Source: Squalus acanthias (taxonomy: Eukaryota). Taken from it: 64,000 nucleotides of DNA. The stretch covers positions 133,982,001-134,046,000 of the forward strand of contig CM059433.1 of assembly GCA_030390025.1 (NCBI GenBank), in the 5' to 3' direction. The notes under the pieces were generated by a model. That model was not told the origin of the DNA. It did no database searches and saw only the letters and a program-made list of their open reading frames with translations. Positions within the stretch are counted from its first letter, which is position 1, and every line of letters starts with the position of its first letter. The position numbers were made by a program, and so were the translations under genes. Shown one piece after another: positions 13,369-64,000 of this stretch.

Positions 13369-14279
13369 TGACAATAATAATTTAGTAAATAACAGCCCAG
13401 TACAGTCACAGAAGGGGAAGATTCTGCCTGACCAATCTCTGACTTTTTTCGACTGTAGTCTACCTTATGCCATGGTGTATGGAGACTTCCAAAAAGCTTC
13501 GACAAACTTCTTCATGAAAGGCTGCTGCGTATGCTATCAGCACTAAAATTCATGGTCAAACTTAGAAATGAATAAGTGGCTAAAATAGAGAAAGCAGTGG
13601 GTACTTTTTAAAGAGGAGCAATGCCAAGGGGAAAGAGTACTGAGTGAACTATCCCATGGCACCTTGTGCTGGGACCCCTACTATTTCTGATTTATATTAA
13701 TGACTTGGACTCAAACTCAATGCAAAGTGATCAAGTTTGCCAATGATACCAAACTTTGGAGGGGGAAGAAGGGAGTTGGAACAGCACCTACAAAAGGAGT
13801 TTAATAAGATCTGTAACTAGGCAGAGCATTAGTATGTGAAATGTAATAGTAGTATTAGTGTGAAGTACTGTACAATGAGAAAATGGGTAACATACATGCT
13901 TTGTGATATAAAAATAGCTGAAAGAGATCTGGGGGTGAAAGTTGGCTCAGCACTTACCATGTCAAAGCACTGGAGAAGCAGTTAACAAAGCAAACAGAAT
14001 GCTGAACTACCACCAACCAGTAGAGTATAAATCAAAGACAGTCATGCTTGAACTGTACAGTCAGACTGCACTTTGAGTATTGTGTTCAATTTGTCAGCAA
14101 GATGCAAAGAAACATTTGAGCTCTGGAGGCTGTGAAGAACAGGCTGATCCTCATTATTAGAGAACCGAACTAGGAGGGTAGGTTCGAGAAACTGGGTGCT
14201 TCATTTTTGGAAGAAAGCAACTAAGAGGGACCTTACAGAAGTATGCAAGATGCTAAATAGTATAATCAGTTTATAACAG

Positions 14280-14355
14280 CTTCTGAAGGGTAATTAGGGA
14301 TGGCCAATTAATGCTAGCCTTGCCAGCGACACCCACATCCCGTGAATGAATAAGT
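14280..14355 (+). mobile_element. 3' tail fragment of the tRNA-headed LINE/SINE family
   Basis: aattagggatggccaattaatgctagccttgccagcgacacccacatcccgtgaatgaataa matches the tails at 25100-25165 and 29210-29277. Confidence 0.8.
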
Positions 14356-19040: not shown

Positions 19041-19734
19041 TCTCTCTCAGGTGGTCTGATCCAGGGGAGAAGGAAAGATGGGGATGAATTCAGTAAGAAA
19101 GAGGGTAAGCATGTATGGGCCTTTTCTCCTAAGTACATAACACAATGTACATATTGTAATGCAATCATTACTTGACAGTTACTCAGTCTTCTTCCTTCAT
19201 GGAAATGGAGGAAAAGAGAAAATAAAAGTAGCAGTCACATAATGTATCTTTTTATAACATGGGCTGGAGAAGATCTAAGATCTAGTTAGGATAATTTGTT
19301 CAAAGTTGCCATGACAATATAATTGGACTTAAAACTGCTAGCAGAGCAACTCAGACAGGATTTGGGTTCGGTCCATTTTAACAGTTTATGTTTCAGAAAC
19401 TAAAACACTGAGCTCTCTATAAAAGTGTTATTCGATACAATTAAAGCGGCTGACTGGACAACAATGAAAAAATTCTCTCAGTCTGTGGTACCTCTGATAC
19501 ACAGAAAGCTTACACTGATGAGTGCTATTAATAGAAGCGTTTCTCCTCCTCCTTTCCAGCCGCTGGTGCAACTTAGATCAGTTGTGCCAATTTGCCCAGC
19601 AAGAAGCAACATTTGCTTTTTTTTAAAGCATCGCAAGCAGGGAAACTAGCACAAATAGTTTTGAGATTTCTTCAAGCCAATTTGGAAACAAAATTAAAAA
19701 GGTTTGAAGGAAACAGTAATTTAAGAAAAAAATG

Positions 19735-20228
19735 TTAGTTAGCCAATCCTCTATCCATGCTAATATATTACCCCCAACCCCGTGAGCTCTTATCTTGTGT
19801 AGTAACCTTTTATGTGGCACCTTATCGAATGCCTTCTGGAAATCCAAATACACGACATCTACTGGTTCCCCTTTATCCACCCTGCTCGCTACATCCTCAA
19901 AGAACTCCAGCAAATTTGTCAAACATGATTTCCCTTTCATAAAACCATGCTGACTCTGCTCGACTATATTATGATTTTTTAAATGTCCTGCTATCACTTC
20001 CTTAATGATGGACTCCAGCATTTTCCCAATGACAGATGTTAGGCTAACTGGTCGATAGTTGCCTGCTTTCTGTCTCCCTCCTTTCTTAAATAAGGGCGTT
20101 ACATTTGCGGTTTTCCAGTCCACTGGGACCTCTCCAGAATCCAGGGAATTCTGGTAGATTACAACTAATGCACCCACTATCTCTGCAGCCACCTCTTTTA
20201 AGACTCTAGGATGCACGCCATCGGGTCC
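19735..20228 (-). mobile_element. CR1 internal RT fragment with an open frame
   Basis: Encodes GPDGVHPRVLKE...GNYRPVSLTS...CLTNLLEFFE...DFQKAFDKVPHKRL...WIEDWLTN. Confidence 0.95.
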
Positions 20229-21167
20229 AAACAAACTATTTGAATCAAATTAACAAGGGGAAACAACAGTAAACATTCACATTTTCTGTTTAACAATATA
20301 GCCAAAGAATATGTTGACAGAATTCATGCTACAGTATTTTAAAATTAACCGCAGTTTAAAATAATAGAATTCTATAATACCAACACTGCACTAATTAATG
20401 CAGTGTTGCTTTAAAGTAACAATTCACAACTTTGTTTCTGCCACTGTACCTTCCCCAAAGAATAGGGAAGATGCATAAAATCACTCTCCTGGCATGTACA
20501 GGCTGTCTGTCTGCTTCCGTTAGCAATCTTTATATTTGTTATTAAAGGCTCTACTGCCTCCAAGGCACATTCGCCGATCACTTCCTCTGGTGGGTCTGGC
20601 ACCCTCCAGGGGCAGGAGCGGTGCCTCATTTAATTTATCATGCCACTGTTGGAGGCAGAGCTGTAAAGCAAATGCAGCATTATGCACCCGGGTTTTAACT
20701 AATTTATGTACAGACACCAACAACCACCCACCCCCCCGCCGCGCCGCCCCCCAGCTCACTTAACAGAAAAAAATGTAACAATCCACAGTAATAAACAGAA
20801 ACAGGCGAAGAATATTAAAGTGAATTCCTTTAAAAATATATTTAAAAAATCAGATGTCAAGAATCTTAAAGCAGCTCTTTTCAAATCCCTTTAAGTTTGG
20901 GAATTAGGAGCAGTTAATGGTAGGCAATGTAAAAATCTGAGTAATGTCACTTCCATTTCAAAGTATTGCTACTCATTTTATATCCAACCACTACTATGGC
21001 CAACACCCCTTACTATCTCCATCCTTTGTCTTTGAGCTACAGGATTTGACTTTCGTCTCTCAGGCAGAGGGAAACCCTTTAAGTGTTTACAACATTAGAC
21101 AGATGAGTTCAAGGCCTGAGCAGCTGCCGGCTGGTTCTTTAAGGAAGCTGATTAACACGTTTCTGTT

Positions 21168-22729: not shown

Positions 22730-23203
22730 AAAGAAGAAAGGAAGACTTGCATTTATATAGTGCCTTTCACGACCACCAGACATCTCAAAGCACTTTACAA
22801 CCTATGAGGTACTATTGAAGTGGAGTCACTGTTGTAATGTGGGAAACGCGGCAGCCAATTTGCGCACTGCATGACCCACAAACAGCAATGTGATAATGAC
22901 CAGATAATCTGTTTTTTTGTTATGTTGGTTGAGGGATAAATATTGGCCAGGTCACCGGGGATAACTCCCCTGCTCTTCTTCGAAATAGTGCCATGGGATC
23001 TTTTACGTCCACCTGAGCGAGCAGACGGGGCCTCGGTTTAACGTCTCATCCGAAAGACGGCACCTCCGACAGCGCAGCACTCCCTCAGCACTGCACTGGA
23101 GTGTCAGCCTAGCTTTATGTGCTCAAGTCCCTGGAGTAGGGACTTGAACTCACAACCTTCTGACTCAGAGGCAAGTGTGCTACCAACTGAGCCACAGTTG
23201 ACA
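22730..23203 (-). mobile_element. Full-length young DeuSINE
   Basis: Highly similar to 12903-13368 with CpGs retained; (TTTC)-type tail. Confidence 0.9.
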
Positions 23204-23431
23204 CTCGAGCTCAAGAGCTACCAAGTCACCTGTGTAGCTATTAAAATATAATTTCCAATTATGAACCAGAATTAAATATTTAGGCATAGGATGAGCTGTG
23301 ATCTTTTAATACTGCAGCTTAACTAGATTTCTTTTCACTTACTGCTGCTCGGGATCACTGTGGCACAAGCACAATATGAAAGCACCTGAAATGAATAACT
23401 CAACGGCATGATGAAAGATACCCTGCACCAC

Positions 23432-23903
23432 TTTTTTTTTTAATTTGTTCACGGGATGTGGGCGTCGCTGGCAAGGCCAGCATTTATTGCCCATCCCTAA
23501 TTGCCCTTGAGAAGGTGGTGGTGAGCCACTTTCTTGAACCGCTGCAGTCTGTGTGGTGAAAGTACTCCCAACAGTGTTAACTTTGTTGTAGCTGTTTGGT
23601 ACAACTGAGTGGCTTGCAGAGGGCAGTTAAGAGTCAACCACATTGCTGTGGGTCACATATAGGCCAGACCGGGTAAGGATGGCAGATTTCCTTCTCTAAA
23701 GGGTTCAAACCAGATGAGTTTTTACGACAATCCAGTAGTTTCATGGTCACCATTACTGATACTGGCTTTTATTCCAGATTCATTTAATTGACTGAATTTA
23801 ATTCCCCAGCTGCCGTGGATGGGATTTGAACTCACGTCTCTGGATCATTTGTGCAGGCCTCTGGATACCAGTCCAGTAACATAACCACTATGTTACCGTT
23901 CCC
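23432..23903 (-). mobile_element. tRNA-headed short element (head plus LINE 3' tail of about 150 nt)
   Basis: Head ggtaacatagtggttatgttactggac...gagttcaaatccc matches 63560-63871; the tail matches the LINE 3' end at 29130-29277. Confidence 0.85.
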
Positions 23904-24379: not shown

Positions 24380-25527
24380 ATCCTTCCCAATGACAACTTG
24401 GACTCAGAAGCTCAAAGCAAACTGATCAAACTTGCAGACAATATCAACCTAGAAGGAGGAGCCGAATCTCAAGTGGCAGCCTTGAAATTACAAAGCATTA
24501 AACAAAATATGTAAGTTGGCAGAACAACAGCAGATGAAATTATATCCAGACGTGTAATAAAATGCTAATGGAATATTGGCCTTTATCTCAGGGGGGTTGG
24601 CTTTAGTTGTACAGAGCCTTGGTCAAACCCCATCTGGAATACTGCGTTCAGTTTTGGCCACCGCACCTCAGGAAGTATATATTGGCTTTGGAAGGGGTAC
24701 AGTTCAGATTCACTATAATTATACCAGGTCTTAAAGGATTAAATTATGAGGACAGGTTGCATAAACTTGGCTTGTATTCCCTTAAATGTAGAAGGGTAAG
24801 GAGTGATCTTTAGAGGCCAGGGCTAATAATCCGGCGACGTGAGTTCAAATCCCACCACGGCAGCTATGGAATTTAAATTCAGTTAATTTAAAAAATCTGG
24901 AATGAAAAGCTGGTATCAGTAATGGTGACCATGTACCAGATTGTCGTAAAAACCCATCTGGTTCGCTAATGTCCTTCAGGGAAGGAAATCTGCCGTCCTT
25001 ATCTGATCTAACCTATATGTGACTCCAGACACACAGCAATATGGTTGACTCTTAACTGCCCTCTGAAATGGCGGCTCACCGCCATCTTCTCAAAAGCATA
25101 AATAGGGATGGGCAATAAATGCTGGCCTTGCCGGCGACACCCACATCCCATGAACGAATTAAAAGATCTAACATAGGTGTTTAAAATGATAAATGGATTC
25201 AATAGGGTACAGAATCTATTTCCTCTGGTGAGGGAAATCCAGGATAAGGGGGCATAATCTTAAAATCAAAGGAGTGAAATCAGGAAGCACTTCTTCACAC
25301 AAAGGGAACTGGAAATCTGAAATTCTCTCCCCCAAAAGACTAAGAGTGCTGGGTCAATTGAAATTTTCAAGACTGAGATCAACAGATTTTTTATTTGATA
25401 AGGGCATCAAGGGATAGGGATCAAAGGTGGGTAAATGGAATTGAAGTACAGATCAGCCATTATCTAACTGAATGGTGGAACAGGCTCAAGGGGTTAAATA
25501 GCCTGCTCCTGTTCCTCGCTTCCTAAT
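24380..25527 (+). mobile_element. CR1 3' region, interrupted by a tRNA-headed short element
   Basis: ORF 24607-24813 encodes YRALVKPHLEYCVQFW...LGLYSL; CR1 resumes at about 25166 (possible gatct TSD) and ends in the gatcagccat...cctgctcct tail. Confidence 0.85.
24813..25165 (+). mobile_element. tRNA-headed short element, 5'-clipped (head plus LINE tail of about 90 nt)
   Basis: B box gagttcaaatccc, body cccatctggttcgctaatgtccttcagggaaggaaatctgcc, tail gggcaataaatgctggccttgcc...catgaacgaat. Confidence 0.85.
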
Positions 25528-26510: not shown

Positions 26511-28454
26511 TCAGTGAAACAAGTTTGATCAGTCTCAATCCAGTTTCTGGCTAGCACTGCTCCATCAAACTACCCACTATTCAGCAGACACCAAGATTGG
26601 TACAGTAGGGATATTCTTCCATGACTGGGATTGAGAACTCCCGCTATACCAACCTAAGAGTGCATCTAACTTGAATGGGGAATGCTCGCTGTTGACACTG
26701 GATGCAAAAGGAAGTGCTTAATCAAGGTCAGTCCTGAAGAATAAGCACAAAAATAAACTGATCATTGAACTAAAGGATAAAGTGGAAATGCTCAAACTAG
26801 ACTAAAATGATACACTGCCTCATTGTTAGGCTACCGCCACACACCAAATAACAAAATGAAAAGCAACAGAAAAGTAGATTATCTGATTTCTTAGCCAGAA
26901 AAGGTGCACAGCCCAGCAAACCCAGGAAGGAGAAGCGGGTGGGGTGGAGAAGGGAAACAAACTGGAGGGAGAATGAGATTTAAGATTCATGGGATTATTT
27001 CACACGTAGACAATCAAATACTCATTGGCACACTGCGGTTGTGGGCCTACTGGAACCGTGGAATGACATCTGTGGAAGAAACCAATCAAAGCTGAATAAT
27101 ACAAATTGCAATATTACATTGATAGCCTAGGAATTTGGTCAATCGTTTTAGAAGGTCGAGAAGAAATTAGAGTTGTACCTGTGGTCAGCCAGTTAGTGCA
27201 AGACATTAAAATAAATTAGGAAGAGCCATGATTATGCAAATTGGCTATCGGAAGGCATGCACTCCATGGACCGAATGCCTTTTATTCTGTAGCTTAAGTT
27301 CTTAGAACATATGTAGAAAATGTGGTGCAAAAATTACTACACAAATAATAAAAGCTCAACACTCAACTGAGCTGCAGACATGTCTTTAGTTGTTTTTCTT
27401 ACTCTACGACAACTCTACTGCTGTTTTACTTTTGTGATCTTTATGGTAGGAGGAAAGTAAATGATCTTAACAATTAAGTTGCATGTGTACACAGGTAAAA
27501 TTTATAGCAGAATTAGAAACACTGATACTTAAAACTAGAAAATACAGATTTAACTAGCTCTTAAATTCAATACAAAAGGCAGTTACAGGGAAACATGTGA
27601 CCAACGGTTTAAATTGTTCTCGCTCTTCTTTATGACATGACAGCCATATTTGCAGAGCAGCTGCTACAAACAGCAGCTCCAAATTCTTGCCTTCCCAGGA
27701 ATAGAACAAGCAGCGGTGTCAGTGTAGAAAGCTTCAGTAAGCGTATTCCAGATTGGCCAAACAGAAAGTTATCCCACACAGCGGCCTTTTGAAGTCTGCT
27801 CTTGGTTTTTGAAAAACAGGACAAGAGCGCTTCAGGCATGTTTATTTTGGTCTCCGTTTTTGCAGCAGTAATCACATTACAAAGAAACAAATGGGAATAG
27901 AAGCGTTGTGTGCGCCTCACAAAATTTACATTGACAAATAGAGCAAATTCAGAGAAATTGGATACAGATTAAAGTTGATCCAGATTTGGGCTTTCCTTCC
28001 TTTAACACAGTAGCTGTATGCCTTTTTATTTTTTTTAAAAATCAAGAAACTGGCATGAGTGGAATTTTATTGTTGATGCTGCACTACCTTTAATCTCCCG
28101 ATGTCTTACATGTGTAAGTACTGAATGTGCTGTAAGGAATTTTAAAAGGCAATCAAGTCTGTTCACAATTCTGAAACTACATATAAAAGCCAGTTAAGAC
28201 TCCATGTTTTACTCATTGAAGCTGTCAACAGGTACAGCTATAAGATGTGAACCAGCCCAGGTACTGCAAGTGCCAACAGTCAGGACCTGTAGCAGGCAGG
28301 TCACAGGTCAGTTCATTTTAAATTCCCGACTAAGAAGGAGGCAGGTGAGTCCCATTTCAGTTTAACATCATTCTGTTGAAAGTGGTTACTTTTTGTTACA
28401 TGTGCAGGGGAAAAAAAATCTAAAAGCACGTGATGTTGATATGCAATAGTGTGA

Positions 28455-29278
28455 TAATGAAGCAGTCCATGCCTGAATGCAGCAAGACCTGGATGACATT
28501 CAGGCTTGGGCTGATAAGTGGCAAGTAACACAAGTGCCAGGCAAGTGGCAGACTATCTCCAACAAGCGAGAGTCTAACCACCGTCCTTGACATTCAACGG
28601 CATTACCATCGCCGAATCCCCCACCATCAACATCCTGGGGGTCACCACTGACCAGAAACTTAACAGGACGAGCCACAAATACTGTGGCAACAAGAGCAGA
28701 TCAGAGGCTGGGTATTCTGTGGTGAGTGTCTCACCTCCTGACTCTCCCAAAGCCTTTCCACCATCTACAAGGCACAAGTAAGGAGTGTGATGGAATACTC
28801 TCCACTTGCCTGGATGAGTGCAGCTCCAACAACATTGAAGAAGCTCGACACCATCTAGGACAAAGCAGCCCGCTTGATTGGCACTCCCTCCACCACCGGC
28901 ACACCGTGGCTGCAGTGTGTACCATCTACAAGATGCACTGCAGCAACTCGCCAAGGCTTCTTCGGCAGTACCTCCCAAACCCGCGGCCTCTACCACCTAA
29001 AAGGACAAAGGCAGCAGGCAAATGGGAACACCACCACCTGCAAGTTCCCCTCCAAGTTACACACCATCCTGACTTGGAAATATATCGCCGTTCCTTCATC
29101 GTCGCTGGGTCAAAATCCTGGAACTCCCTCCCTAACAGCACTGTGGGAGTGCCTTCACCACACGGACTGCAGCGGTTCAAGAAGCTGGCTCACCACCACC
29201 TTTACAAGGACAATTAGGGATGGGCAATAAATGCTGGCCTTGCCAGGTGACACCCACATCCCAGGAACGAATAAAAAA
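28455..29278 (+). mobile_element. 5'-truncated copy of the second CR1-group (tRNA-headed) LINE
   Basis: Encodes MQQDLDDIQAWADKWQV...MEYSPLAWMSAAPT...SFIVAGSKSWNSLP; tail gggcaataaatgctggcc...gaacgaataaaaaa. Confidence 0.9.
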
Positions 29279-32520: not shown

Positions 32521-35500
32521 AATGGCAGGGGGTTGGGAACCTGTGCAGGGAGACAGAGGAAAGGGAAGCAAGGATAGAAACAAAAGACAGGAAGGAGAAA
32601 AGCAAAAGTGGAAGGCAGAGAAATCAAGGGTGTAAATCAAACAGGGCCACAGTAAATAATAATTCTAAAAGGACTAAGAGTGTTAAAAAATCAAGCCTGA
32701 AGGCTGTGTGTCTTAATGCGAGGAGCATTCGTAATAAGGTGGATGAATTAGCTGCACAAATAGATGTAAACGGATATGATATAATTGGGATTACGGAGAC
32801 ATGGCTCCAGGATGACCAAGTCTGGGAATTCAACATCCAGGGGTATTCAATATTCAGGAAGGACAGGAAAAAAGGAAAAAGAGGTGGGGTAGCATTGCTG
32901 GTTAAAGAGGAGATTAACACAATAGTAAGGAAGGATATTAGCTCTGATGATGTGGAATCCGTATGGGCAGAGCTGAGAAATACCAAGGGGCAGAAAACGT
33001 TAGTGGGAGTTGTATGCAGACCTCCAAACAGTAATGCTGAGGTTGGGGATGGCATTAAACGGGAAATTAGAGATGTGTGCAATAAGGGCACAGCAGTTAT
33101 CATGGGTGACTTTAATCTACATATAGATTGGGCTAACCAAATTAGTAACAATACTGTGGAGGAGGAATTCCTAGAGTGTATACGGGATGGTTTCCTGGAC
33201 CAATATGTCGAGGAACCAACTAGAGATCAGGCCATCTTAGACTGGGTATTATGTAATGAGAAAGGATTAATTAGCAATCTTGTTGTACGAGGCCCCTTGG
33301 GGAGGAGCGATCATAATATGATAGAATTCTTCATTAAAATGGAGAGTGAAGTAGTTGACTCAGAGACTAGGGTCCTGCATTTAAATAAAGGAAACTACGA
33401 TGGTATGAGGCACGAGTTGGCTAGGATGGATTGGGGAACGTTACTTAAAAGGGTTGACGGTGGATAGGCAATGGCAAACATTTAAAGATCGCATGGATGA
33501 ACTACAGAATTTGTTCATCCCTGTTTCGCATAAAAATAAAACAAAAAAGGTGACTCAACCGTGGCTAACAAGGGAAATTAGGGCTAGCATAAGATCCAAG
33601 GAGAGGGCATATAATTTGGCCAGAAAAAGCAGCAAACCTGAGGATTGGGAGCAGTTTAGGGTTCAGCAAAGGAGGACAAAGGGATTAATTAAGAGGGGGA
33701 AAATAGATTGAGAGCAAGCTTAAAGGGAACATAAAAACTGACTGTAAAAGCTTCTATAGATATGTGAAGAGAAAAAGATTGGTGAAGTCAAGCGTAGGTC
33801 CCTTGCAGTCAGAATCAGGGGAATTTATAATGGGGAACAAAGAAATGGCAGACCAATTAAATACATACTTTGGTTCTGTCTTCACAAAGGAGGACACAAA
33901 TAACCTCCCAGAGATGTCGAGGAACATAGGGTCTAATGAGAGGGAGGAATTGAATTAAATCAGTATTTGTAGGGAAATGGTATTCGGGAAATTGATGGGA
34001 TTGAAGGCCGATAAATCCCCAGGGCCTGATAATCTACATCCTAGGGTACTTAAGGAAGTGGCCCTAGAAATAGTAGATGCATTGCTGGTCATCTTCCAAA
34101 ATTCTAGACACTCTGGAACAGTTCCCATGGATTGGAGGATAGCTAATGTAACCCCACTATTTAAAAAAGGTGGTAGAGAGAAAACGGGGAATTATAGACC
34201 GGTAAGTCTGACATCGGTAGTGGGGAAAATGCTCGAGTCCATTATAAAAGATGTAATAGCAGAGCATTTGGAAAACAGGGACAGGATCGGACAAAGTCAA
34301 CCTGGATTTACAAAAGGTAAATCATGCTTGAGTAATCTACTGGAATTTTTTGAGGATGTAACTGGTAGAATAGATAAGGGAGAACCAGTGGATGTGGTGT
34401 ATTTGGACTTTCAGAAGGCTTTCGATAAGGTCCCGCATAAGAGATTAGCGTGCAAAGTTAAAGCACACAGGATTGGGGGTAAGGTACTGTCTTGGATAGA
34501 GAACTGGTTGGCAGACAGGAAGCAAAGAGTTGGAATAAACGGGTCTTTTTCCGAGTGGCAGGCAGTGACTCGTGGGGTACCGCAGGGATTGGTGCTAGGA
34601 CCCCAGCTATTCACAATATAAATATATATATATATATATATAAAAAAAATAAATGATCTAGACGAGGGAACTAGATGTAATATCTCCAAGTTTGCAGACG
34701 ACACAAAGCTGGGTGGGCGTGTGTGCTGTGAGGAGGATGCAGAGAAACTCCAGTATGATTTGGACAGGTTGGGTGATTATACTGCATTTGCCACGCATCT
34801 GCCCAATGTGGATAAATGCGAGGTTATCCACTTCAGTGGCAAAAACAGGAAGACAGATTATCTGAACGGCAATAGATTGGGAAAAGGGGAAGTGCAACGA
34901 GACCTGGGTGTCCTTGTGCACCAGTCGCTGAAGGTAAGCATGCAGGTGCAGCAGGCGGTTAAGAAGGCAAATGGTATGTTGGCCTTCATAGCGAGAGGAT
35001 TCGAGTACAGGAGCAAGGATGTCTTGCTGCAGTTGTACATGGCCTTGGTGAGACCACACCTTGAGTATTGTGTGCAGTTTTGGTCACCTTATCTGAGGAT
35101 GGATGTTCTTGCCATGGAGGGAGTGCAGCGAAGATTCACCAGACTGATACCTGGGATGGCAGGAATGACGTATGATGAGAGATTGGGTCGATTAGGCTTA
35201 TATTCGCTAGATTTAGAAGAATGAGAGGGGATCTCATTGAAACTTATAAAATTCTAACAGGACTAGACAGACTAGATGCAGGAAGGATGTTCCCGATGGC
35301 GGGGGAGTCCAGAACCAGGGGTCACAGTCTAAGGATAAGGGGTAAGCCATTTACGACTGAGATGAGGAGGAATTTCTTCACCCAGAGAGTGGTGAATCAG
35401 TGGAATTCTCTACCACACAAGGCAGTTGAGGCCAATTCATTAAATATATTCAAGAAGGAGTTAGATATAGTTCTTAAGGCTAAAGGGATCAAGGGATATG

Positions 35501-35526
35501 GGGAGAAAGCAGGGACAGGGTACTGA
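32520..35526 (+). pseudogene. CR1 ORF2: APE endonuclease plus reverse transcriptase, disrupted
   Basis: CLNARS, ITETW, GDFN and SDHN (endonuclease); NYRPVSL, DFQKAFD, VPQG and FADD (RT); several frameshifts and stops. Confidence 0.95.
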
Positions 35527-36434
35527 ATTTGGATGATCAGCCATGATCTCATTAAATGGTGGAACAGGCTCGAGGGGCCGATTGGCCTACTCCTGCTCCT
35601 ATCTTCTATGTTTCTATGTTAGCATGCAGATAATGGATGTGTGGGACTTCACATGGGAGATGGCTGGAGTCACAGAGCTCTTGATAAGCAAAAGTTTATG
35701 AAGGATGGAAATGGGAAGGCCAGCGAGGAAAGCATTTGGAAAACTCATGCTCGAGATAATAAAGGTATGGATGATATTTCAGCAGCAGAGGGATGATGTA
35801 GGAGCATCAGCAGGCAACGAGCTAGGTGAAATGTACCAGTCTTGCTGATAGTCCGGATGTGAGGATTAAAGCTCAATTCAGGGTCAAACAGTTCGAAAAG
35901 GTCAGCTGCCACTGGAAAACTGGGAATTCCAAACCTTTAGTGTTTCCATCTTCACTCTGGTAAGGCCCTTGGGGAGCCTCAAGCAGTATGACTGTCGGCC
36001 ACTCCTCCTTAGAAAGGTGGATCCGAGCAGGCGTCTTTAAAGTGCACCTGCAGGCACTGGCAGCTCACCTCATCTATGCAACTGACCTCATCCCCAAGAC
36101 TTGGCACGGGATCTGCGATCATCAACCCAGGTGGCTGAGAGATCCATTCTGCCGCATTTGTGCCAGCAGAGAAGACCCATCAAAACTTCTGCCCCCTGGA
36201 ATATTACAAGACAGAATTAGGCTATTTCATCGATCAAGTCTGCACCAGTGCTTTTCTCTACATGAGCTACCTAGTCTAATACCACTGTTCTGCTTGCTTC
36301 CTATAACCTATAATATTCCTCTTTTTCAAGCAACTAATTCCCTTTTAAAGTAATTTACAAACTCTGCTTCAACAGAAATGTGAGGCTGACAAACAAAATG
36401 AAACAGCAAATCTGCTGAAAGATGGAGACTCTGG

Positions 36435-37960: not shown

Positions 37961-39721
37961 TTTGAAGGCAACAAACTTTCCGTGGAGTACTACTACAGTC
38001 ATGCAAAAGTAGGTTATTCAAGCGACATGTAACTCTATTATAGATGGTACACATAATATTCCTACCTTTGTACTGCCCTACTGAGCATTAATCTGCAGTT
38101 ACAGAATCAAAACAGCTTACAGTAGACAATATACTGTATGTCCAGTTGAAATATTTTCAGCAAGAATATTAATTAACAGCAAGAGTACTACTAGCTGTAA
38201 AGGTTACTCAATTAAATAGGTTGAAAGGAAGAACGAACAAACTCGCATTTTCTACAGCACCTTTCTTGTCCTCAGGATGTCCCAAAGCACTTCAAAGCCA
38301 ACAAAGCACTTTTGAAATGTAGTCACTGGCAGCCAACTTGTGCACAAACAGCAATGAGATAAATGACCAATTAATCTGTTTTATGGCAGTCTGTGGCAAA
38401 CAGTCAAAGAATTAATTCACAATTCGCAATGAATATACATTCCCTTGAGAAATTAAAAACCCCATGGAAAAAGTGGTCCAACCATAGCTGACGGGAAGTT
38501 AGATAGTATTAGATTATAATGTTGCCAGAAAGAGTAGTAAGCCTGAGGATTGGGGGGATTTTAGAATTCAGGAAACTGATAAAGTAAGAGAAAAGAATAT
38601 GAGAGTAAACTAGCAAGAGACATAAAAACAGATTGTAAAAGCTTCTATAAGTATGTAAAAAGTGATTAGCAAAAGTAAACATGGGCCACTTACAGGCAGA
38701 GACAGGAGAAATTATAATGGGGAATACGGAAATGGCAGAGACATTAAACAAATACTTTGTATCTGTCTTCACGGTAGAAGACACAAAAAACATTGCGGAA
38801 ATAGTGGGGAACCCAAGTGTCTAGTGAGAATGAGTAAATTAAAGAAATGAGTATTAGTAAAAAAAAAATAGTACTGGAGAAATTAATGGGACTAAAAGTC
38901 GACAAATCCCTAGACTTAATGGCTTACATCCTAGGGCTTTAAAAGAGGTGGCTAGAGATAGTGGATGCATTGGTTGTCATTTTCCAGAATTTCCTAGATT
39001 CTAGAACGTTCCCTGTGGATTGGAAGGTCGCGAACGTAACCCCGCTGTTCAAGAAAGGAGGGAGAGAGAAAACAGGAAACTACAGGCCAGTTAGCTTGAT
39101 ATCAGTAGTAGGGAAAATGCTAGAATCTATTATTAGGGACGTGGTAACAGGGCACTTAGAAAATCCTAATAGGATTGGGCAGAGTCAACACGGATTTATG
39201 AAAGGGAAATCGTGTTTGACAAATCTGTTAAGAGTTTTTTTTTGAGGTTGTCACTAGCAGGGTAGATAAGGGGGAACCAGTGGATGTGGTGTACTTGATT
39301 TTCAAAAAGCATTTGATAAGGTTACACACAAGGGGTTATTACACCAAATTAGGGCTCATGGGATTGGGGTAATATAGTACCATGGATTGAGGATTGTTTA
39401 ATGGACAGAAAACAGCGAGTAGGAATAAATGGGTCATTTTCGGGATGTAACTAGTGGAGTGCCACAAGGATTAGTGCCACAGCGATTTACAATCTAAATT
39501 AATGACTTAGATGAGGGGACCAGGTGCAACGTATCCAAGTTCTCTGACGATACAAAGTTAGGTGGGAAAGTAAGCTGTGAGGAGGACGCAAACAGGCTGC
39601 AAAGGGATACATACAGACAGGTTAAGTGAGTGGGCAAGAACATGGCAGGTGGAATATAACGTGGAGAAATGTGAAGTTGTCCACTTTGGGAAGAAATAGA
39701 AAAGCAGATTATTTTTTAAAT

Positions 39722-41461
39722 TTTTTAAAATTCGTTCATGGGATATGGGCATCGCTGGCAAGGCCAGCATTTATTGCTCATCCCTAATTGTCCTCGAGAA
39801 GGTGGTGATGAGCCGCACTCGTGAACTGTGTGGTGAAGGTACTCCCACAGTGCTGTTACAGAGGGAGTTCCAGGATTTTGACCCCGCGACGATGAAGGAA
39901 TGGCGATGTACTTCCAAGTCAGGATGGTGTGTAACTTGGAGGGGAACTTGCAGGTGATGGTGTTCCCATGCGCCTGCTGTCCTTGTCCTTTTAGGTGGTA
40001 GAGATCGCGGGTTTGGGAGGTGCTGTCAAACAAGCCTTGGCGAGTTGCTACAGTGCATCTTGGAGATGGTACATATTGCAGCCACGGTGCGTCGGTGGGA
40101 GGGAGTGAAAGTTTAAGGTGGTGGATGGGGTGCCAATCAAGTGGGTTGCTTTGTCCTGGATGGTGTCGAGCTTCTTCAGTGTTGTTGGAGCTGCACTCAT
40201 CCAGGCAAGTGGAGAGTATTCCATCACACTCCTTACTGTGCCTTGTAGATGGTGGAAAGGCTTTGGGGAGTCAGGAGGTGAGACACTCGCCACAGAATAC
40301 CCAGCCTCTGACCTGCTCTTTTGTTGCCACAGTATTTATGTGGCTGGTATGGTTAAGTTTCTGGTCAATGGTGACCCCCAGGATGTTGATGGTGGGGGAT
40401 TCAGCGATGGTAATGCCGTTTAATGTCATGGGGCGGTGGTTAGACGCTCACTTGTTGGATATAGTCATTGCCTGCCACTTGTGTGGCGCGAATGTTACTT
40501 GCCACTTATTAGCCCAAGCCTGAATGTCGTCCAGGTCTTGCTGCATGCGAGTATGGACTGCTTCATGATCTGAGGAGTTGCAATTGGCACTGAACACTGT
40601 GCAGTCATCAGCGAACATCCCCACTTCTGACCTTAAGATGGAGGGAAGGTCATTGATGAAGCAGCTGAAGATGGTTGGGCCTAGAATACTGCCCTGAGGA
40701 ACTCCTGCAACAATGTCCTGGGGTTGTGATGATTGACCTCCAACAACTACAACCAGTTTCCTTTGTGCTAGGTATTACTCTAGCCAGTGGAGAGTTTTCC
40801 CCCTGATTCCCATTGACGTCAGTTTTACTAGGGCTCCTTGATGCCACACTTGGTCAAATGCTGCCTTGATGTCAAGGGCAGTCACTCTCACTTCACCTCT
40901 GGAATTCAGCTCTTTTGTCCATGTTTGGACCAAGGCTGTAATGAGGTCTGGAGCTGAGTGGTCCTGGCAGAACCCAAACAGAGCATCAGTGAGCAGGTTA
41001 TTGGTGAGTAAGTGCTGCTTGATAGCACTGTCGCCGACACCTCCCATCACTTGGCTGATGATTGAGAGTAGACTGATGGGGCGGTAATTGGCCAGATTGG
41101 ATTTGTCCTGCTTTTTGTGGACAGGACATACCTGGGCAGTTTTCCACATTGTCGGACAGATGCCAGTGTTGTAACTGTACTGGAACAGCTTGGCTAGAGG
41201 CGCGGGCTAGTTCTGGAGCACAAGTCTTCAACACGACAGCCGGGATGTTGTTGGGGCCCATAGCCTTTGCTGTATCCAGTGCGCTCAGCCGTTTCTTGAT
41301 ATCACGTGGAGTGAATCAAATTGGCTGAAGACTGGCTTCTGTAATGGTGGGGACCTCAGGAGGAGGCTGATATGGATCATCCACTCAGCACTTCCGGCTG
41401 AAGATAGTTGCAAACGTTTCAGCCTTGTCTTTTGCACTCACATGCTGGGCTCTGCCATCAT
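39722..41461 (-). mobile_element. 5'-truncated copy of the second CR1-group (tRNA-headed) LINE
   Basis: Encodes MGPNNIPAVVLK...NYRPISLLS...ALDIKAAFDQVWHQG...; collinear with 60697-62715. Confidence 0.92.
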
Positions 41462-41540
41462 TGGGGATAGGGATGCCTTACTACAATTATATAGGGCCTT
41501 GGTAAGACCACACCTGGAGTACTGTGTACAGTTTTGGTCT

Positions 41541-49719: not shown

Positions 49720-52700
49720 ACTGGCAGAAAGGTATTAATATGGGAAATGATAAACAGACCGTGACAGGAAGGGATAGAGAGTACAAATCTAAGAGTAAAT
49801 CAACAGATAAGGCTAGAGGTTACAAAAATAATAAAAGGACAAATCCAAAGGCTCTGCATCTGAATGCACATAGCATTCAAAACAAAACAGATGAACTGAT
49901 AGCGCAAATAGAAATAAATAAATATGATCTGATAGCCATCACAGAAACATGGCTGCAGGATGACATAGATTGGGACCTGAATATTGAAGGGTACATGGCA
50001 TTTAGGAAGGTGGGAAAAGGTGGAGGGGTGGCTCTGTTAATTAATGATGGTATTAGCACAATAGAGAGGGATGACCTAAGTTCAGGAAACCAGGATGTAG
50101 AAGCGGTTTGGGTAGAGATGAGAAATAATAAAGGCAAGAAGTCACTTGTGGGAGTGGTGTACAGGCCCCCTAACAGTAACCACATGGTAGGATGGAGTAT
50201 AAAGGAAGAAATAATGGGAGCTTGTCAGAAGGGTACAGCAATAATCATGGGGGATTTTAATCTGCATATAGACTGGAAAAATCAGATGGGCAAAGGTAGC
50301 ATAGATGAGGAGTTCATGGAATGTTTTCGGGATAGTTTCTTACAACAGCACGTTCTGGAGCCAACCAGAGAGCAGGCTATACTAGACCTGGTATCACGCA
50401 ACGAGATAGGATTAATTAATGACCTCATAGTGAAGGCGCCCCTAGGTAGCAGCGATCATAATATGATTGAATTTTACATTCAGTTTGAGAGAGAAGAGTG
50501 GGTCCAAGACTAGTATTTTAAACTTAAATAAGGGCAATTATGAGGGCATGAAAGCAGAGCTAGCTAAAGTGAACTGGCAAATTAGGTTAAGGGATAGGTC
50601 AATAGAGTTGCAGTGGCAGACATTTAAGGGGATATTTCAAAATACACAGTATACATTCCAACAAGAAAGAAAAATTCCAAGGGGAGGACCCACCATCCGT
50701 GGCTAACTAAAAAAGTTAAAGATAGTATTAAACTTAAAGAAAAAGCATATAATTGCGCAAAGATGGGTGGCAGGTCAGAAGATTGGACAGAATATAAAAA
50801 ACAGCAAAGAATGACAAAGATTAATAAGGAGAGAAAAATTAGAGTACAAGAGAAAGCTAGCTAGAAATATAAAAAGATAGTAAGAGTTTCTATAGATATT
50901 TAAAAAAGAAAAGAGTTAACAAAGTGAGCGTTGGTCCTATAAAAAGTGAGTCTGGGAATTAATAATGGAAAATAAGGAGATGGCAGTTGAATTGAACAGG
51001 TATTTTGCATCAGTCTTCACTATAGAGGATACAAGTAAGTAACATCCCAGAAATAGCTGTAAATCAGGAAATGGAAGGGAGGGAGGAACTCAAGAAAATT
51101 AGAATCACCAGGGAAGTGGTACTGAGTAAATTGTTGGAGCTGCAGGCTGACAAGTCCCTGGGTCCTGATGGACTTCATCCTAGGGTTTTAAAAGAAGTGG
51201 CCAGTGAGACAGTTGATGCGTTGGTTTTAATTTTCCAAAATTCCCTAGATTCGGGGAAGGTTCCATTAGATTGGAAAATAGCGAATGTAACTCCTTTATT
51301 CAAAAAGGGAGGGCAACAGAAAGCAGGAAACTACAAGCCAGTTAGCTTAACATCTGTCATAGGGAAGATGTTAGAAGCTATTATTAAAGACATTATAGCA
51401 GGGCATTTAGAAAAGTTCAAAGTAATCAGGCAGAGTCAACATGGTTTTGTGCAAGGGAAATCATGTTTAACCAATTTATTGGAGTTCTTTGAGGAAGTAA
51501 CATGTGCTGTGGATAAAGGGGAACCGGTGGATGTACTGTACTTAGATTTCCAGAAGGCATTTGATAAGGTGCCACATCAAAGGTTATTGCGGAAAATAAA
51601 AGCTCATGGCGTAGGGGGTAACATATTGGCATGGATAGAAGATTGGCTAGCTAACAGGAAACAGAGAGTAGGCATAAATGGGTCATTTTCTGATTGGCAA
51701 GATGTAACGAGTGGTGTGCCACAGGGATCAGTGCTGGGGCCTCAACTTTTTACAATTTATATAAATGACTTGGATGAAGGGACCGAAGGTATGGTTGCTA
51801 AATTTGCTGATGGCACAAAGATAGGTAGGAAAGTAAATTGTGAAGAGGACATAAGGAGGCTACAAAGGGATATAGATAAGTTAAGTGAGTGGGCAAAGAT
51901 CTGGCAAATGGAGTGTAATGTGGGAAAATGTGAAGTTGTCCATTTTGGCAGGAAGAATAAAAAAGAAGCATATTATCTAAATGGTGAGAGATTGCAGAGC
52001 TCTGAGATGCAGAGGGATCTGGATGTCCTAGTGCATGAATCACAAAAGGTTAGTATGCAGGTACAGCAAGTAATTAGGAAAGCTAATAGAATGTTATCGT
52101 TTATTGAGAGGGGAATTGAATACAAAAGTAGGGAGGTTATGCTTCAGTTATACAGGGCATTGGTGAGACCACATCTGGAGTACTGTGTACAGTATTGGTC
52201 TCCTTATTTAAGGAAGGATGTAAATGCGTTGAAGCAGTTCAGAGAAGGTTTACTAGACTAATACCTGGAATGGGCGGGTTGTCTCATGAGGAAAGGTTGG
52301 ACAGGCTAGGCTTGTATCCGCTGGAGTTTAGAAGAATAAGAGGTGACTTGATTGAAACATATAAGATCCTGAGGGGTCTGGACAGGGTGGATCTGGAGAG
52401 GATGTTTCCCCTTGTGGGAGAATCTAGAACTAGGGGTCACTGTTTAAAAATAAGGGGTCGCCCATTTAAGACAGAGATGAGGAGAAATTTTTTCTCAGAG
52501 GGTCGTGAGTCTTTGGAACTCTCTTCCTCAGAGGGTGGTGGAAGCAGAGTCTTTGAATATTTTTAAGGCAGAGGTAGATAGATTCTTGGTAAGCAAGGGG
52601 GTGAAAAGTTATCGGGGGTAGGCGGGAATGTGGAGTAATCAGATCAGCCATGATCTTATTGAATGGCGGCGCAGGCTCAAAGGGCCAAGTGGCCTACTCC

Positions 52701-52727
52701 TGCCCCTAATTCGTATGTTCGTATGTA
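49720..52727 (+). mobile_element. CR1 with nearly complete ORF2 and 3' tail, 5'-truncated
   Basis: Endonuclease in ORF 49644-50513, 396-aa RT ORF 51071-52261 with the catalytic motif mutated to FADG, C-terminus and tail ...attcgtatgttcgtatgt. Confidence 0.95.
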
Positions 52728-55761: not shown

Positions 55762-56187
55762 ATTTTTTTATTATTCATTCACAGGATATGGACGTCGCCA
55801 GCAAGGCCAGCATTTATTGCCCGTCCCTAATTGCCCTCAAGAAGATGGTGGTGAGCCGCCTTCTTGAATGCAACTGAATGGCTTGCTAGGCCATTTCAGA
55901 GGGCAGTTAAAAGTCAGCCACATTGCTGTGGGTCTGGAGTCACATATAGGCCAGACCGGGTAAGGACAGATTTCCTTCCCTAAAGGACATTAGTGAACCA
56001 GATGGGTTTTTGCAACAATCCAGTAGTTTCATGGTCACCATTACTGATACTAGCTTTATATTCCAGATTTATTTAATTGAATTTAAATTCCCCAGCTGCC
56101 ATGGGATGTGAACTCATATCTCTGAATCATTAGTCCAGGCCTCTGGATTACTAGTCCATTAATATAACCACTATGCTACCCAACCCC
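55762..56187 (-). mobile_element. tRNA-headed short element (head plus LINE tail of about 100 nt)
   Basis: A box TAGCATAGTGG; same body as 63560-63871; joins the LINE tail at cagttgc|attcaagaaggcggctc. Confidence 0.88.
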
Positions 56188-60020: not shown

Positions 60021-60149
60021 ACTTTCTCTTCCTTCTTACCTATAGATTAGGTAACAACCCACTTTATTCTCTGCATGCAATGATATACAGTATGTGCACC
60101 AATAATTTGCATGGTATTTTTAAATGGCATCCCCCATACTTGCCATTTT

Positions 60150-60328
60150 ATATTTATTAGTTTATGGGATGTGGGCGTCACTGACAAGGCCAGCATTTAT
60201 TGCCCATCCCTAATTGCCCTTGAGAAGGTGATGGTGAGCCGCCTTCTTGAACCGCTGCAGTCCGTGTGGTGAAGGTACTCCCACAGTGCTGTTAGGGAGG
60301 GAGTTCCAGGATTTATACCCAGCGACGA
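60150..60328 (-). mobile_element. 3' fragment of the tRNA-headed LINE family
   Basis: Near-identical to 60700-60880. Confidence 0.88.
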
Positions 60329-60696
60329 TATGCAGCATATTTTAAATTATTCAAGTGTTCTTGAAACAAAGGATTGCTTCAGATAGACAAAAAATCAGGT
60401 AACTATAAGTGCACTCCTTTTCGCAGGTTTATATTAGCAGATTCTCTTGGGGACGTAGTTCACTCCACCCTCCAGCATGAATGGGGTGGGTGCTCCCAGG
60501 TGTACCACTGTGTCTTTGCATAGCTCAAGAAGGGATTTCAAAGGAATTCACTGTAAAATACAAAGGGCATCTATCCCAACTTCACATCACTACCAGACAC
60601 AGGCCGGGAGGGGGGGAGAGGGGAGGGGGGGAGGGTCGGTGTCACGGAAACCTTAAAAAAAAACAGCTACCACTTTATGCGTGGCAAAGATTCACC

Positions 60697-63600
60697 TTAT
60701 TTTTATTCGTTCCTGGGATGTGGGCATCACTGGCAAGGCCAGCATTTATTCCCCATCCCTAATTGCCCTTGAGAAAGTTATGGTGAGCCACGTTCTTGAC
60801 CCGCTGCAGTCCTTGTGGTGAAGGTGCTCCCACAGTGCTGTTAGGGAGGGAGTTCCAGGATTTTGACCCAGCAACAATGAAGGAACAGCTATATATTTCC
60901 AAGTCAGGATGGTGTGAGACTTCACAGAATCACAGAATCCCCACAGTGCAGATAGAGGCCATTTCGGCCCATCGAGCCTGCACCGACACATATCCCACCC
61001 TATCCCCGTAACCCCACGTATTTAATCCCCCTAACACTAAGGGTCAATTTATCATAGCCAAATCAACCTAACCCGCACATCTTTGGACTGTGGGAGGAAA
61101 CCGGAGCACCCGGAGGAAACCCACGGACACGGGGAGAATGTGCAAACTCCAAACAGTCACCCGAGGCCAGATTCGAACCTGGGTCCCTGGCGCTGTGAGG
61201 CAACAGTGCTAACCACTATGCCACCGTGTTGACTTGGAGGGGAACTTGCAGGTGATGGTGTTCCCATGCGCCTGCTGCCCTTGTCCTTTCAGGTGGAAGA
61301 GGTCGCGAGTATGGGAGGTGCCGTCAAAGAAGCCTTGGCAAGTTGCTGAAGTGCATCTTGCAGATGGTACACACTGCAGTCACAGTGCACCGGTGGTGGA
61401 GGGAGTGAATGTTTAAGGTGGTGGATGAGGTGTAAATCAAGCAGGCTGTTTGTCCTGGATGATAACAAACTTCTTGAGTTGGAGCTGTACTCATCCAGGC
61501 AAGTGGAGAGTATTCCATCACACTCCTTACTTGTGCCTTGTAGATGGTGGAAAGGCTTTTGGGGGGTCAGGAGGTGAGACACTCGCCACAGAATACCCAG
61601 CCTCTGACCTGCTCTTGTGGCCACAGTATTTATGTGGCTGGTCCAGTTAAGTTTCTGGTCAATGGTGGGGAATTCACGATGGTAATGCCGTTGAATGTCA
61701 TGGGACGTTGGTTAGACTCTCGCTTGTTGGAGATAGTCATTGCCTGCCACTTGTGTGGCGCGAATGTTACTTGCCACTTATCAGCCCAAGCCTGAATGTC
61801 GTTCAGGTCTTGCTGCATGCGGGCATGGACTGCTTCATTTTCTGAGGAGTTGCGAATGGAACTGAACACTGGCAATCATCAGCGAACATCCCCACTTCTG
61901 ACCTTAAGATGGAGGAAAGGTCATTGAAGAAGCAGCTGAAGATGGTTGGGCCTAGGACACTGCCCTGAGGAACTCCTGCAGCGATGTCCTGGAGCTGAGA
62001 TGATTGACCTCCAACAACAATCTTCCTTTGTGCTTGATATGACTCCAGCCAGTGGAGAGTTTTCCTCCTGATTCCCAATGACTTCAGTTTTACTATGGCT
62101 CCTTCATGCCACACTCGGTCAAATGCTGCCTTGATGTCCAGGTCAGTCACTCTCACCTCACCTCTGAAATTCAGCTCTTTTGTCCATGTTTGGCCCAAGG
62201 TTGTAATGAGGCCTGGAGCTGAGTGGTCCTGGCGGAACCCAAACTGAGCATCTGTGAGCAGGTTATTGGCGAGCAAGTGCCACTTGATAGCACTATCGAC
62301 AACACCTTCCATCACTTTGCTGACGATTGAGAGTAGACTGATGGGGCAGTAATTGGCCGGATTGGATTAGTCCTGCTTTTTGTGGACAGGACATACCTGG
62401 GCAGTTCTCCACATTGTCAGGTAGATGCCAGTGTTGTAGCAGTACCTGAACAGCTTGGCTAGAGTCGCGGCTAGTTCTGGAGCACAAGTCTTCAGCACGA
62501 TAGCCGGGATGTTGTCAGGGCCCATAGCCTTTGCTGTATCCAGTGCACTCAGCCATTTCTTGATATCACGTGGAGTGAATCAAATTGGCTGAAGACTGGT
62601 TTCTGTGGTGGTGGGGACCTCAGGAGGAGGCTGATATGGATCATCCACTCAACACTTCTGGCTGAAAATGGTTCCAAACGCTTCAGCCTTGTCTTTTGCA
62701 CTCACGTGCTGGGCTCCAAATCATTGAGGAAGGGGATCTTCATGGAGCCTCCTCCTCCCGTTAGTTGTTTAATGGTCCACCACCATTCACGACTGGATGT
62801 GGCAGGACTGCAGAGCTTTGATCTGATCTGTTGATTGTGGGATCGCTTAGCTCTGTCTATAGCATGCTGTGTTGCAGCTTCCCCAGGTTGGCACCTCATT
62901 TTTAGGTACGCCTGGTGCTGTTGCTGGCATGCTCTTCTACACTCCTTATTGAACCAGAGTTGGTCCCCTGGCTTGGTGGTAATGGTAGAGTGAGGGATAT
63001 GCCGGGCCATGAGGTTACAGATTGTGGCGGAATACAATTCTGCTTCTGCTGATGGCCCACAGCTCCTCATGGATGCCCAGTTTTGAGCTGCTAGATCTGT
63101 TCTGAATCTAGTGATGTTCAACATGGAGGAGTACTGATTCATCAGCTGAGGGAAGGTGGCAGGTGGTAATCAGCAGGAGGTTTCCTTGCCTATGCTTGAC
63201 GTGAAGCCATGAGACTTCATGGGATCCTGAGTCAATGTTGAGGACTCTCAGGGCCACTCCCTCCCGACTGTATATCACTTGCCGCCACCTCTGGTGGGTC
63301 TGTCCTGCCGGTGGGACAGGACATACCCAGGGATGGTGGAGGAGGAGTCTGGGACATTGGCTGAAAGGTTTGCTGCTATGCACATGACTATGTCAGGCTG
63401 TTGCTTGACTAGTGTGTGGGACAGCCAATTTTGACACAAGTCCCCAGATGTTAGTGAGGAGGACTTTGCAGGATTCACTGGGCTGGGTGTGCCGTTGTCA
63501 TGTCCGAAGCCGGTGCCAAAGTCGATGCCGGGTGGTCCGTCCGGTTTTATTCTTAAAATTGTTTGTTACAACTGAGTGGGTTGCTAAGCCATTTCGGAGG

Positions 63601-63871
63601 GCAGTCAAGAGTCAACCACATTGCTGTGGGTCTGGAGTCACCTCTAGGCCAGAGCAGACGGCAGATTTCCTTCCCTTAAGGGCATCAGTGGATTTTTATG
63701 ACAATCTGATAATTTCATGGTCACCATTGCTGATACTAACTTTTTATTCCAGATTTATTTAAATAACTGAATTTAAACTCCCCAGCTGCCGTGGTGGGAT
63801 TTGAACTCACGTCTCTGGATCGTTAGTTCAGGCCTCTGGATTACTAGTCCAGTAACATAATCACTGCTACC
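60697..63871 (-). mobile_element. Apparently full-length CR1-group LINE with a tRNA-derived 5' head and a single disrupted APE-RT ORF
   Basis: Head 63560-63871. Endonuclease N-terminus (QQPDIV...IPGYVLSHRQDRPTRGGG) from about 63470, with its C-terminal half deleted at about 63108. RT motifs DIKAAFDRVWH, VPQGSVLGP and MFADD; GAAT plus poly-A tail. Confidence 0.85.
60923..61230 (-). mobile_element. Full-length HE1-like V-SINE inserted in the LINE
   Basis: tRNA head, V domain, CR1-type tail gatgggccgaaatggcc...gattctgtgattctgtg; TSD gactt at 60918-60922 / 61231-61235. Confidence 0.92.
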
Positions 63872-64000
63872 TGCATGAGTGGTGACCCACCCACAGGTAA
63901 ATCAGCATAGTTTTGGAGATAAGGGGTTCTTCCACTGGTAGATTTCTTCGTGTAGGGCTATGCTGTGAACAGGATTTGTGGCAAAAAGGGGAAGCTGTTG

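Follow-up and report, generated by a model that had tools for sequence, protein, structure and literature searches.

LINEs are protein-coding elements transcribed by RNA polymerase II (Pol II), and SINEs are short, non-coding elements transcribed by Pol III. A locus in 64,000 nt of spiny dogfish (Squalus acanthias) DNA, referred to here as the window, raises the question of whether this division holds, because a tRNA-like head of the SINE type stands there directly in front of a LINE. A preliminary description of the locus proposed that an autonomous retrotransposon had captured a SINE as its 5′ untranslated region (UTR) and promoter. Does the arrangement belong to a LINE family or to this locus only, and, if to a family, which polymerase makes the RNA and how is it translated?

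A decayed Zenon element with a tRNA-like head

The minus strand from 63871 to 60697 forms one element, running from a tRNA-like head through a body, a linker, an APE endonuclease, reverse transcriptase (RT), and a C-terminal region to a stop codon, a 3′ UTR, and an A-rich end (Table 1). By its sequence, it is a decayed elasmobranch Zenon LINE of the ∼3.3-kb, single-ORF (APE plus RT) kind. The APE motif (L-T-N-I-W-G) begins near 63458, ∼110 nt past the end of the shared body, and, as the preliminary description had it, neither a SINE tail nor poly(A) lies in between. The RT region matched Pfam RVT_1 (E = 1.3e-24) and, as also claimed there, is followed by the 3′ tail of the short copies (79 to 89% identity). 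The broken endonuclease pieces gave no Pfam call and matched endonucleases of relatives (best E, 8.6e-7), and the broken ORF is collinear with relatives of 940 to 1050 aa (APE endonuclease plus RT). Stops, frameshifts, loss of ∼112 endonuclease codons at 63110 together with the catalytic C-terminal motifs, and a SINE insertion, putatively HE1 in the preliminary description, bear out the earlier judgment that this copy is dead. As before, no target site duplication (TSD) was found, the search extending to within 45 nt of the ends of seven family copies, which are old. Family sequence in the window (∼7 kb in total) includes three short copies with head and tail, two 5′-truncated LINE copies, and two tail fragments.

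Table 1. Features of the element and of other family copies in the window
Feature	Position	Strand	Remark
tRNA-derived head	63785..63871	-	family 5′ end lies a few nt further out (contig ends at 63865, published consensuses)
Anticodon-like arm	63852-63836	-	
Long variable-arm hairpin	63831-63815	-	closely repeats the anticodon arm
Body / 5′ UTR, ∼215 nt	63569..63784	-	common to short copies and 7/7 elasmobranch Zenon consensuses
Linker, 110 nt	63459..63568	-	probably Arg-rich N-terminal leader of the single ORF
APE endonuclease, 5′ half	63111..63458	-	frameshifts near 63425 and 63279
Endonuclease end, tether, and RT	61660..63110	-	stops and frameshifts present
ORF C-terminal part	60759..61659	-	TAG stop 60761-60759; split by SINE insertion
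Inserted unrelated tRNA-headed SINE	60923..61231	-	A box 61223-61213, B box at 61178
3′ UTR, ∼55 nt, then A-rich end	60697..60758	-	with AATAAA
Short copy	23433..23897	-	head, body, and ∼25 nt of linker joined to last ∼140 nt of LINE
Short copy, A box intact	55763..56181	-	body to 63569 joined to last ∼105 nt of LINE
Short copy, 5′-truncated	24812..25164	+	joint at ∼63590, 3-nt microhomology, to last ∼95 nt of LINE
5′-truncated LINE copy	39721..41474	-	RT 91% identical
5′-truncated LINE copy	28453..29278	+	
Tail-only fragment	60146..60329	-	
Tail-only fragment	14277-14361		

The B box, GTTCAAATC, lies at 63806-63798 (minus strand), where it had been placed before; the A box (63871-63861) has been damaged in this copy by a 2-nt loss and, again in agreement with the preliminary description, is intact in the copy near 56170 (56178-56168). 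Of the window's four heads, not one has both boxes perfect. With the Rfam tRNA model, the head of the 23897 copy scored 24.4 bits (E = 0.0034 in 201 nt), that of the 63871 copy 17.8 bits (E = 1.1), and that at 56185 14.1 bits (E = 2.4), against a gathering score of 29. The 24.4-bit copy indicates that the head is tRNA-like beyond chance, with all scores below the gathering score; ARAGORN called no tRNA in the heads. Two copies have AGT (Thr) at the anticodon position, and the acceptor stem pairs poorly. A long variable arm is a trait of class II tRNAs, and the head may resemble a serine tRNA.

Head-to-endonuclease junction in elasmobranchs

The junction could be peculiar to this locus, where a SINE and a LINE, both truncated, would have come to lie side by side by chance; the failure to find a TSD and the presence of only one full-length copy in the window would suit that reading. 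Published consensuses and sequencing reads speak against it. The family, whose novelty had been left undecided, is already in print as elasmobranch Zenon (Stuart et al. 2026, PMC13343379). The supplement of that paper holds seven elasmobranch consensuses of 2886 to 3314 nt, from white shark, whale shark, catshark, spiny dogfish (three), and stingray. All seven open with the head, followed by the body and then the linker (first 400 nt, compared by eye). Named SquAca_Zenon-1, -2, and -3, CarCar_Zenon-1, RhiTyp_Zenon-1, ScyCan_Zenon-1, and HypSab_Zenon-1, they share these three parts with the window element over 400 nt, measure 2.9 to 3.3 kb, lack ORF1, and end in poly(A) (PMC13343379). Because the consensuses were seeded from RT and extended 5′, as the paper's methods state, their boundary was not picked for a head. 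Three of four window motifs were found in the supplement, and the matches fall in elasmobranch Zenon rows. The window copy is nearest to SquAca_Zenon-1 (5′ 400 nt, by eye), and its linker is ∼12 nt shorter than in the closest published consensus. Other full-length copies with a conventional 5′ UTR and ORF1 would have contradicted the proposal, and the seven consensuses were head-first and without ORF1.

Four of 24 listed sequencing runs, from four organisms, were mapped on 62801-64000 at 80% likeness and counted in 40-nt bins. Summed depth, which is not a copy number, was 5.6e4 to 2.9e6 in every bin of 62801-63880 versus 3 to 25 in the flank bins 63881-63960 (all four runs). The linker bins 63481-63560, absent from the short copies, had a summed depth of 5.6e4 to 5.4e5, thousands of times that of the flank in each run. 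Among the matches listed, 430 to 639 contigs per run stop at 63865, with ∼14 shared letters and then unrelated flanks; such ends with heterogeneous flanks mark the 5′ end of the family. None of the 32 contig pieces among the matches listed (221,487 further pieces) bridged 63570, so the read data alone back the junction indirectly. Since the junction recurs in the consensuses of five species and the linker is high-copy in four of four runs, it is not unique to this locus, and chance adjacency is excluded, the probability left to it being negligible. These comparisons indicate that the head-to-endonuclease junction is the normal 5′ end of the family, and we are practically certain that the architecture is that of a tRNA-headed LINE.

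Within the head, conservation is highest in the letters of the A and B boxes: in the printed elasmobranch consensuses, the A-box consensus is present in seven of seven and the B-box consensus in six of seven (by eye). The variable-arm sequence differs between dogfish and the other species, and its hairpin is kept in four of five species (by eye). Head plus body of the decayed copies folded no better than shuffles (z = −1.2 to +0.6).

Placement within Zenon

FastTree trees were built from 126 and 247 RT pieces, with matches covering too little of the RT excluded. The RT phylogeny that had been called for placed the window RT in a clade with Zenon-like lepidopteran proteins (support, 0.85; deep nodes weak), apart from bird CR1. 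These proteins are 40 to 42% identical to the window RT and match, by eye, the start of the Zenon-1_Hmel ORF as printed; the window's own CR1 copies fall outside the clade, with 29 to 34% identity. Outside sharks, identity to RT relatives does not exceed ∼50%; many of these are endonuclease-RT proteins of 920 to 1050 aa on 3- to 4-kb contigs. Family fragments of 62 to 79% identity occur in gene models of Heptranchias, Heterodontus, and Cetorhinus, and, in a set of 19 proteins made up of 16 fragments of the family and 3 distant relatives, none includes the head or the linker. The junction peptide matched none of 25 candidates at E up to 10, and a search of 1.84 billion representatives returned three repetitive false matches only. 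The endonuclease-start DNA motif had no match in metagenome or viral contigs, nor did a viral collection contain relatives of the family.

Long copies of elasmobranch Zenon number hundreds to thousands per genome in the published table (PMC13343379). According to the same source, Zenon ends in a poly(A) tail and ORF1 is absent from all Zenon sequences surveyed; four aligned family copies from our material have A-rich ends beyond the common 3′ terminus. The preliminary description had set an ORF1-less element beside the head as something out of the ordinary for the CR1/L2 group. The absence itself stands, but not as a consequence of the head: since Zenon lacks ORF1 in all surveyed sequences, the absence is inherited, and loss of ORF1 through head capture was rejected.

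The head is different. It does not open any of the three printed Zenons of hagfish (two) and coelacanth (one) (first 400 nt, by eye), and the 5′ ends given for lepidopteran Zenon show no tRNA likeness. Eight loci near the Zenon clade had neither a B box upstream of the ORF nor an Rfam tRNA at E up to 1, in searches that are insensitive and with 5′ ends that may be incomplete; one locus had nearly no upstream DNA. Of 133 related loci, 60 were run through ARAGORN without a tRNA call, which is weak evidence since it missed the shark head too, and BLASTN of head, body, linker, and tail against all 133 gave AT-rich chance matches only. On these comparisons, the head is a derived trait within Zenon. 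The words "tRNA" and "polymerase III" do not occur in the main text of PMC13343379, which discusses neither the head nor the short derivatives nor the lack of an AUG in frame. In the literature covered, exclusive of Repbase, Dfam, and most subscription papers, no description of a tRNA head on shark Zenon was found.

Short copies and the direction of origin

The LINE had been proposed to spawn its own SINE-like derivatives. Head and body (63871-63569) are 85 to 88% identical to those of the three short copies, in which the joints differ in three of three cases and on both sides, and all tails begin inside the ORF. With the ORF stop at 60761-60759, the tail of the short copies takes in coding sequence. 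The copy at 23432 had been said to run into the linker; it does, and, judged by the published consensuses (PMC13343379), the stretch (∼25 nt) is longer than first noted. Three different joints fit internal deletion of the LINE, and the short copies look like such deletions, as proposed, in a sample of three in which older SINE subfamilies are possible.

The opposite direction, in which the LINE received its head and body from an older fixed-structure SINE to which the short copies belong, appears unlikely to us. The plan of head, body, and tail is that of a textbook SINE, and exchange of modules among SINEs is common (PMC5786205). Measured against the SINE2 class, the family does have a tRNA-like head with A and B boxes, scoring below the Rfam gathering score; the three short copies are short and non-coding, the 3.2-kb element is neither, and one fixed head-body-tail structure is lacking, because all three short copies differ, in what is a small sample. 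A donor SINE also fits poorly with joints that vary on both sides, with the copy that extends ∼25 nt into the LINE linker, with tails that start in the ORF, and with a body unlike each of the three conserved SINE domains compared. No Deu motif was present in any family copy (such motifs occur in other repeats at 13195 and 23028), which also rules out identity with SacSINE1. The body differs from the Meta consensus by eye; as for UCON3, four window motifs were absent from the comparison supplement, and the two UCON3 rows printed there differ by eye. The captured piece may have been a pre-existing SINE, as the preliminary description had it, or a tRNA alone, with the body stemming from the 5′ UTR of the LINE itself.

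Transcription of the element

Pol III terminates at four or more T residues in a row. The window copy has two sense-strand T4 runs, counted with ∼335 nt of endonuclease missing, and both are private: at 63558-63555, ∼99% of the depth carries another base, and the run near 62667 is absent from the 41474 copy. The 41474 and 28453 copies have no internal sense T4 run, nor do the first 400 nt of the seven elasmobranch consensuses (by eye). Among 83 relatives with an ORF of at least 700 aa, 82 have 6 or more such runs. One relative (L083) has a single run. The sense strand is 21% T, however, and the null model expects 2.5 to 4.9 runs, so that the T-poor composition accounts for much of the scarcity, which is weak evidence; counts in single copies are not significant (P = 0.11 to 0.73), and 3 runs, versus 8.1 expected, were counted in one of the window's canonical CR1 copies. 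Retention of both boxes across sharks and rays, together with the absence of a family-level sense T4 run, plausibly favors Pol III, and we consider it somewhat more probable than not that the head is a working promoter.

Two other accounts of the head have to be weighed. Pol II might make the coding RNA, with the head serving as a captured 5′ UTR, as a Pol II helper (e.g., through TFIIIC-bound open chromatin), or as a passenger, and with Pol III acting on the short derivatives only. LINEs are normally transcribed by Pol II, and the processivity of Pol III is regarded as low: SINEs span 100 to 700 bp, and Kojima argues that it limits such elements to ∼1 kb (PMC10886601); the 3.3 kb of the full-length RNA therefore counts against Pol III. 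The AATAAA and poly(A) end (PMC13343379) fit Pol II equally well, and the T-run scarcity is not significant in any one copy. A 5′ boundary at the tRNA start in seven of seven consensuses, and boxes that persist in both sharks and rays, are harder to reconcile with Pol II, as are several out-of-frame AUGs ahead of an ORF that has none in frame, a poor fit to cap-dependent scanning. We hold the Pol II account to be rather improbable. Less probable still, in our estimate, is a role at the RNA level, in which RNase P would cut host read-through transcripts at the tRNA-like fold and so set the 5′ end, with no need for a promoter. The anticodon arm is kept, as is the variable-arm hairpin in four of five species despite its changed sequence (by eye), and other LINE clades are freed from cotranscripts by 5′ ribozymes, self-cleaving in R2, RTE, and Ingi (PMC5786205). 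It is the box letters that are best conserved, however, while the acceptor stem pairs poorly and decayed copies show no excess of folding.

Translation start

In the window copy, no AUG upstream of the first motif is in frame with the endonuclease, and the same holds for the first 400 nt of the consensuses of five species, which in the ray reach the motif (by eye). The body carries out-of-frame AUGs at 63621 and 63592 and two small hairpins (63629-63616 and 63597-63572). In the frame of the endonuclease, the linker codes for an Arg-rich leader; relatives have similar leaders and mostly begin with an ordinary AUG; a 2A peptide in the leader was rejected because the NPGP motif is absent. An out-of-frame AUG stands at the start of the leader in six of seven printed consensuses and is mutated in the window copy (63550-63548). 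Between the last body hairpin and this AUG, the species differ by one nucleotide in the printed consensuses, a difference from which we infer that the start should lie downstream of the hairpin. Translation would begin either at this AUG, with a frameshift after it, or at a non-AUG codon.

The predicted last hairpin of the body carries an anticodon-like loop of 7 nt that could pair with a conserved 4-mer 11 to 12 nt downstream. The paired triplet is in the endonuclease frame in the main consensus of four of five species and not in that of dogfish (by eye, post hoc, in the printed part). By analogy with the PKI of dicistroviruses, loop and 4-mer might form a PKI-like detail of an internal ribosome entry site (IRES), a notion we regard as very doubtful. 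No IRES or ribozyme family of Rfam, dicistrovirus IGR IRES and HDV-like ribozyme included, matched 63000-64000 at E up to 10, weak evidence from a decayed copy.

Proposed mechanism

The following sequence of events is proposed. Before the split of sharks and rays, a Zenon element would have acquired the head, probably when RT switched templates, in place of its former 5′ end. The A and B boxes would then act as an internal promoter from which Pol III transcribes the full length of the element, beginning at the 5′ end of the tRNA; every new copy would bring its own promoter, and sense T runs that end transcription would be purged. The RNA, lacking a cap and an AUG in the endonuclease frame, would be translated from a nonstandard start near the Arg-rich leader, through a non-AUG start positioned by the structured body or through the conserved out-of-frame AUG and a subsequent frameshift. 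Deletions inside the element, sparing the head and the 3′ end, would yield SINE-like copies that the LINE protein could move. For the whole chain, including transcription by Pol III, our belief and our doubt are close to balanced, with doubt slightly ahead. The stricter version, in which a 3.3-kb LINE RNA made by Pol III from a captured tRNA promoter is translated without a cap or an in-frame AUG, with the body as IRES, and SINEs arise in one step by internal deletion, is offered as a tentative model that we think more doubtful than that.

Discussion

The shark element combines features known from separate systems. Lepidopteran Zenon, as described in PMC6740152, likewise has a single ORF, a length of ∼3.3 kb, and a 5′ UTR of ∼245 nt; it differs in having an in-frame AUG shortly before the endonuclease. 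Persaeus is an internally deleted derivative of lepidopteran Zenon that keeps both ends, as the shark short copies do, but, unlike them, its published description reports no tRNA homology or Pol III promoter (PMC6740152). Bov-tA, WALLSI2, CoeSINE4, and SINE2-1_ACar resemble the shark short copies in joining a tRNA head to a LINE 5′ part and a LINE 3′ end (Kojima 2018, PMC5786205). In Bov-tA and the others, an RTE or Vingi that had previously undergone deletion acquired the head, whereas in sharks the autonomous CR1-group LINE is itself headed. RTE-1_DAn and related elements, autonomous LINEs of the RTE clade with tRNA-like sequence, are a precedent for which the account in PMC5786205 gives neither position nor function. 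Capture of small-RNA Pol III promoters, as proposed here, is known from the TRIMp3 elements Cassandra, Helenus, and Ajax, which, unlike the shark LINE, are non-autonomous LTR elements of 311 to 1263 bp that encode no protein (PMC10886601). Two tRNA-headed shark SINEs, SacSINE1 (a DeuSINE) and HE1 (a V-SINE), have look-alikes in the window; SacSINE1 has an L2 tail (PMC5499810) and a Deu domain that the Zenon family copies lack.

What the family adds is a SINE-type promoter at the own 5′ end of a LINE across sharks and rays. Its 5′ 450 nt are directly testable in reporters. If the head is passive, a point of annotation remains, for the heads will be counted as SINEs. If it works, the element would be a natural long Pol III message, translated of necessity without a cap. 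Internal deletion would make it possible to trace where a SINE body comes from, a matter left open in Kojima 2018 (PMC5786205), and would provide a one-step route to the birth of SINEs.

Motif blocks and hairpin loops in Zenon 5' ends

Short motif blocks seemingly common to the 5' UTRs of head-less Zenon relatives from distant hosts were recognized by eye in LINE loci outside sharks (L001, L011, and L081) and in the coelacanth consensus LatCha_Zenon-1, one of the published consensuses compared over their first 400 nt. Such sharing would point to an RNA structure under conservation, either a ribozyme or an IRES, for which Rfam has no model. By eye, no obvious counterpart was seen in the shark body, the 5' UTR that follows the tRNA-derived head. 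In several Papilio Zenon elements (PMC6740152, supplement), the 5' UTR contains a CUGAUGA motif. This motif is putatively similar to a hammerhead ribozyme core.

In the first 400 nt of the elasmobranch Zenon consensuses, the loop of the head-closing hairpin appeared by eye to be complementary to a body-hairpin loop over 6 to 9 nt, making a kissing interaction possible.

Features by window position or locus
Feature	Position	Strand	Basis
Motif blocks	L001:390-430 and 515-525		By eye
Motif blocks	L081:880-920 and 950-985		By eye
Motif block	L011:10-75		By eye
Motif block	LatCha_Zenon-1 5' end (PMC13343379)		By eye, first 400 nt
Complementary loops	63785-63800 and 63660-63680	-	Consensuses, by eye, first 400 nt
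CR1, canonical	32700-35619	+	
CR1, canonical	49848-52726	+	
CR1, canonical	38515-39590	+	
CR1, canonical	19733-20246	-	
Deu-domain SINEs	12900-13370 and 22740-23205; also near 37676, 52816		

Other elements and relatives

The canonical CR1 copies represent several subfamilies (67 to 79% mutual likeness), and the Deu-domain SINE copies, probably SacSINE1-like, are separate from the shark Zenon family. Eukaryotic LINEs at 53 loci (L081 to L133) lie in bacterial MAGs, mostly of mollusc symbionts, and probably represent host contamination of those assemblies.

The Zenon-group relative L083 (L083:1-3099) contains only one sense T4 run, and its TT depletion is similar to that of the shark family. 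Because its sequence lacks the 5' end, L083 may have carried a small-RNA head there.
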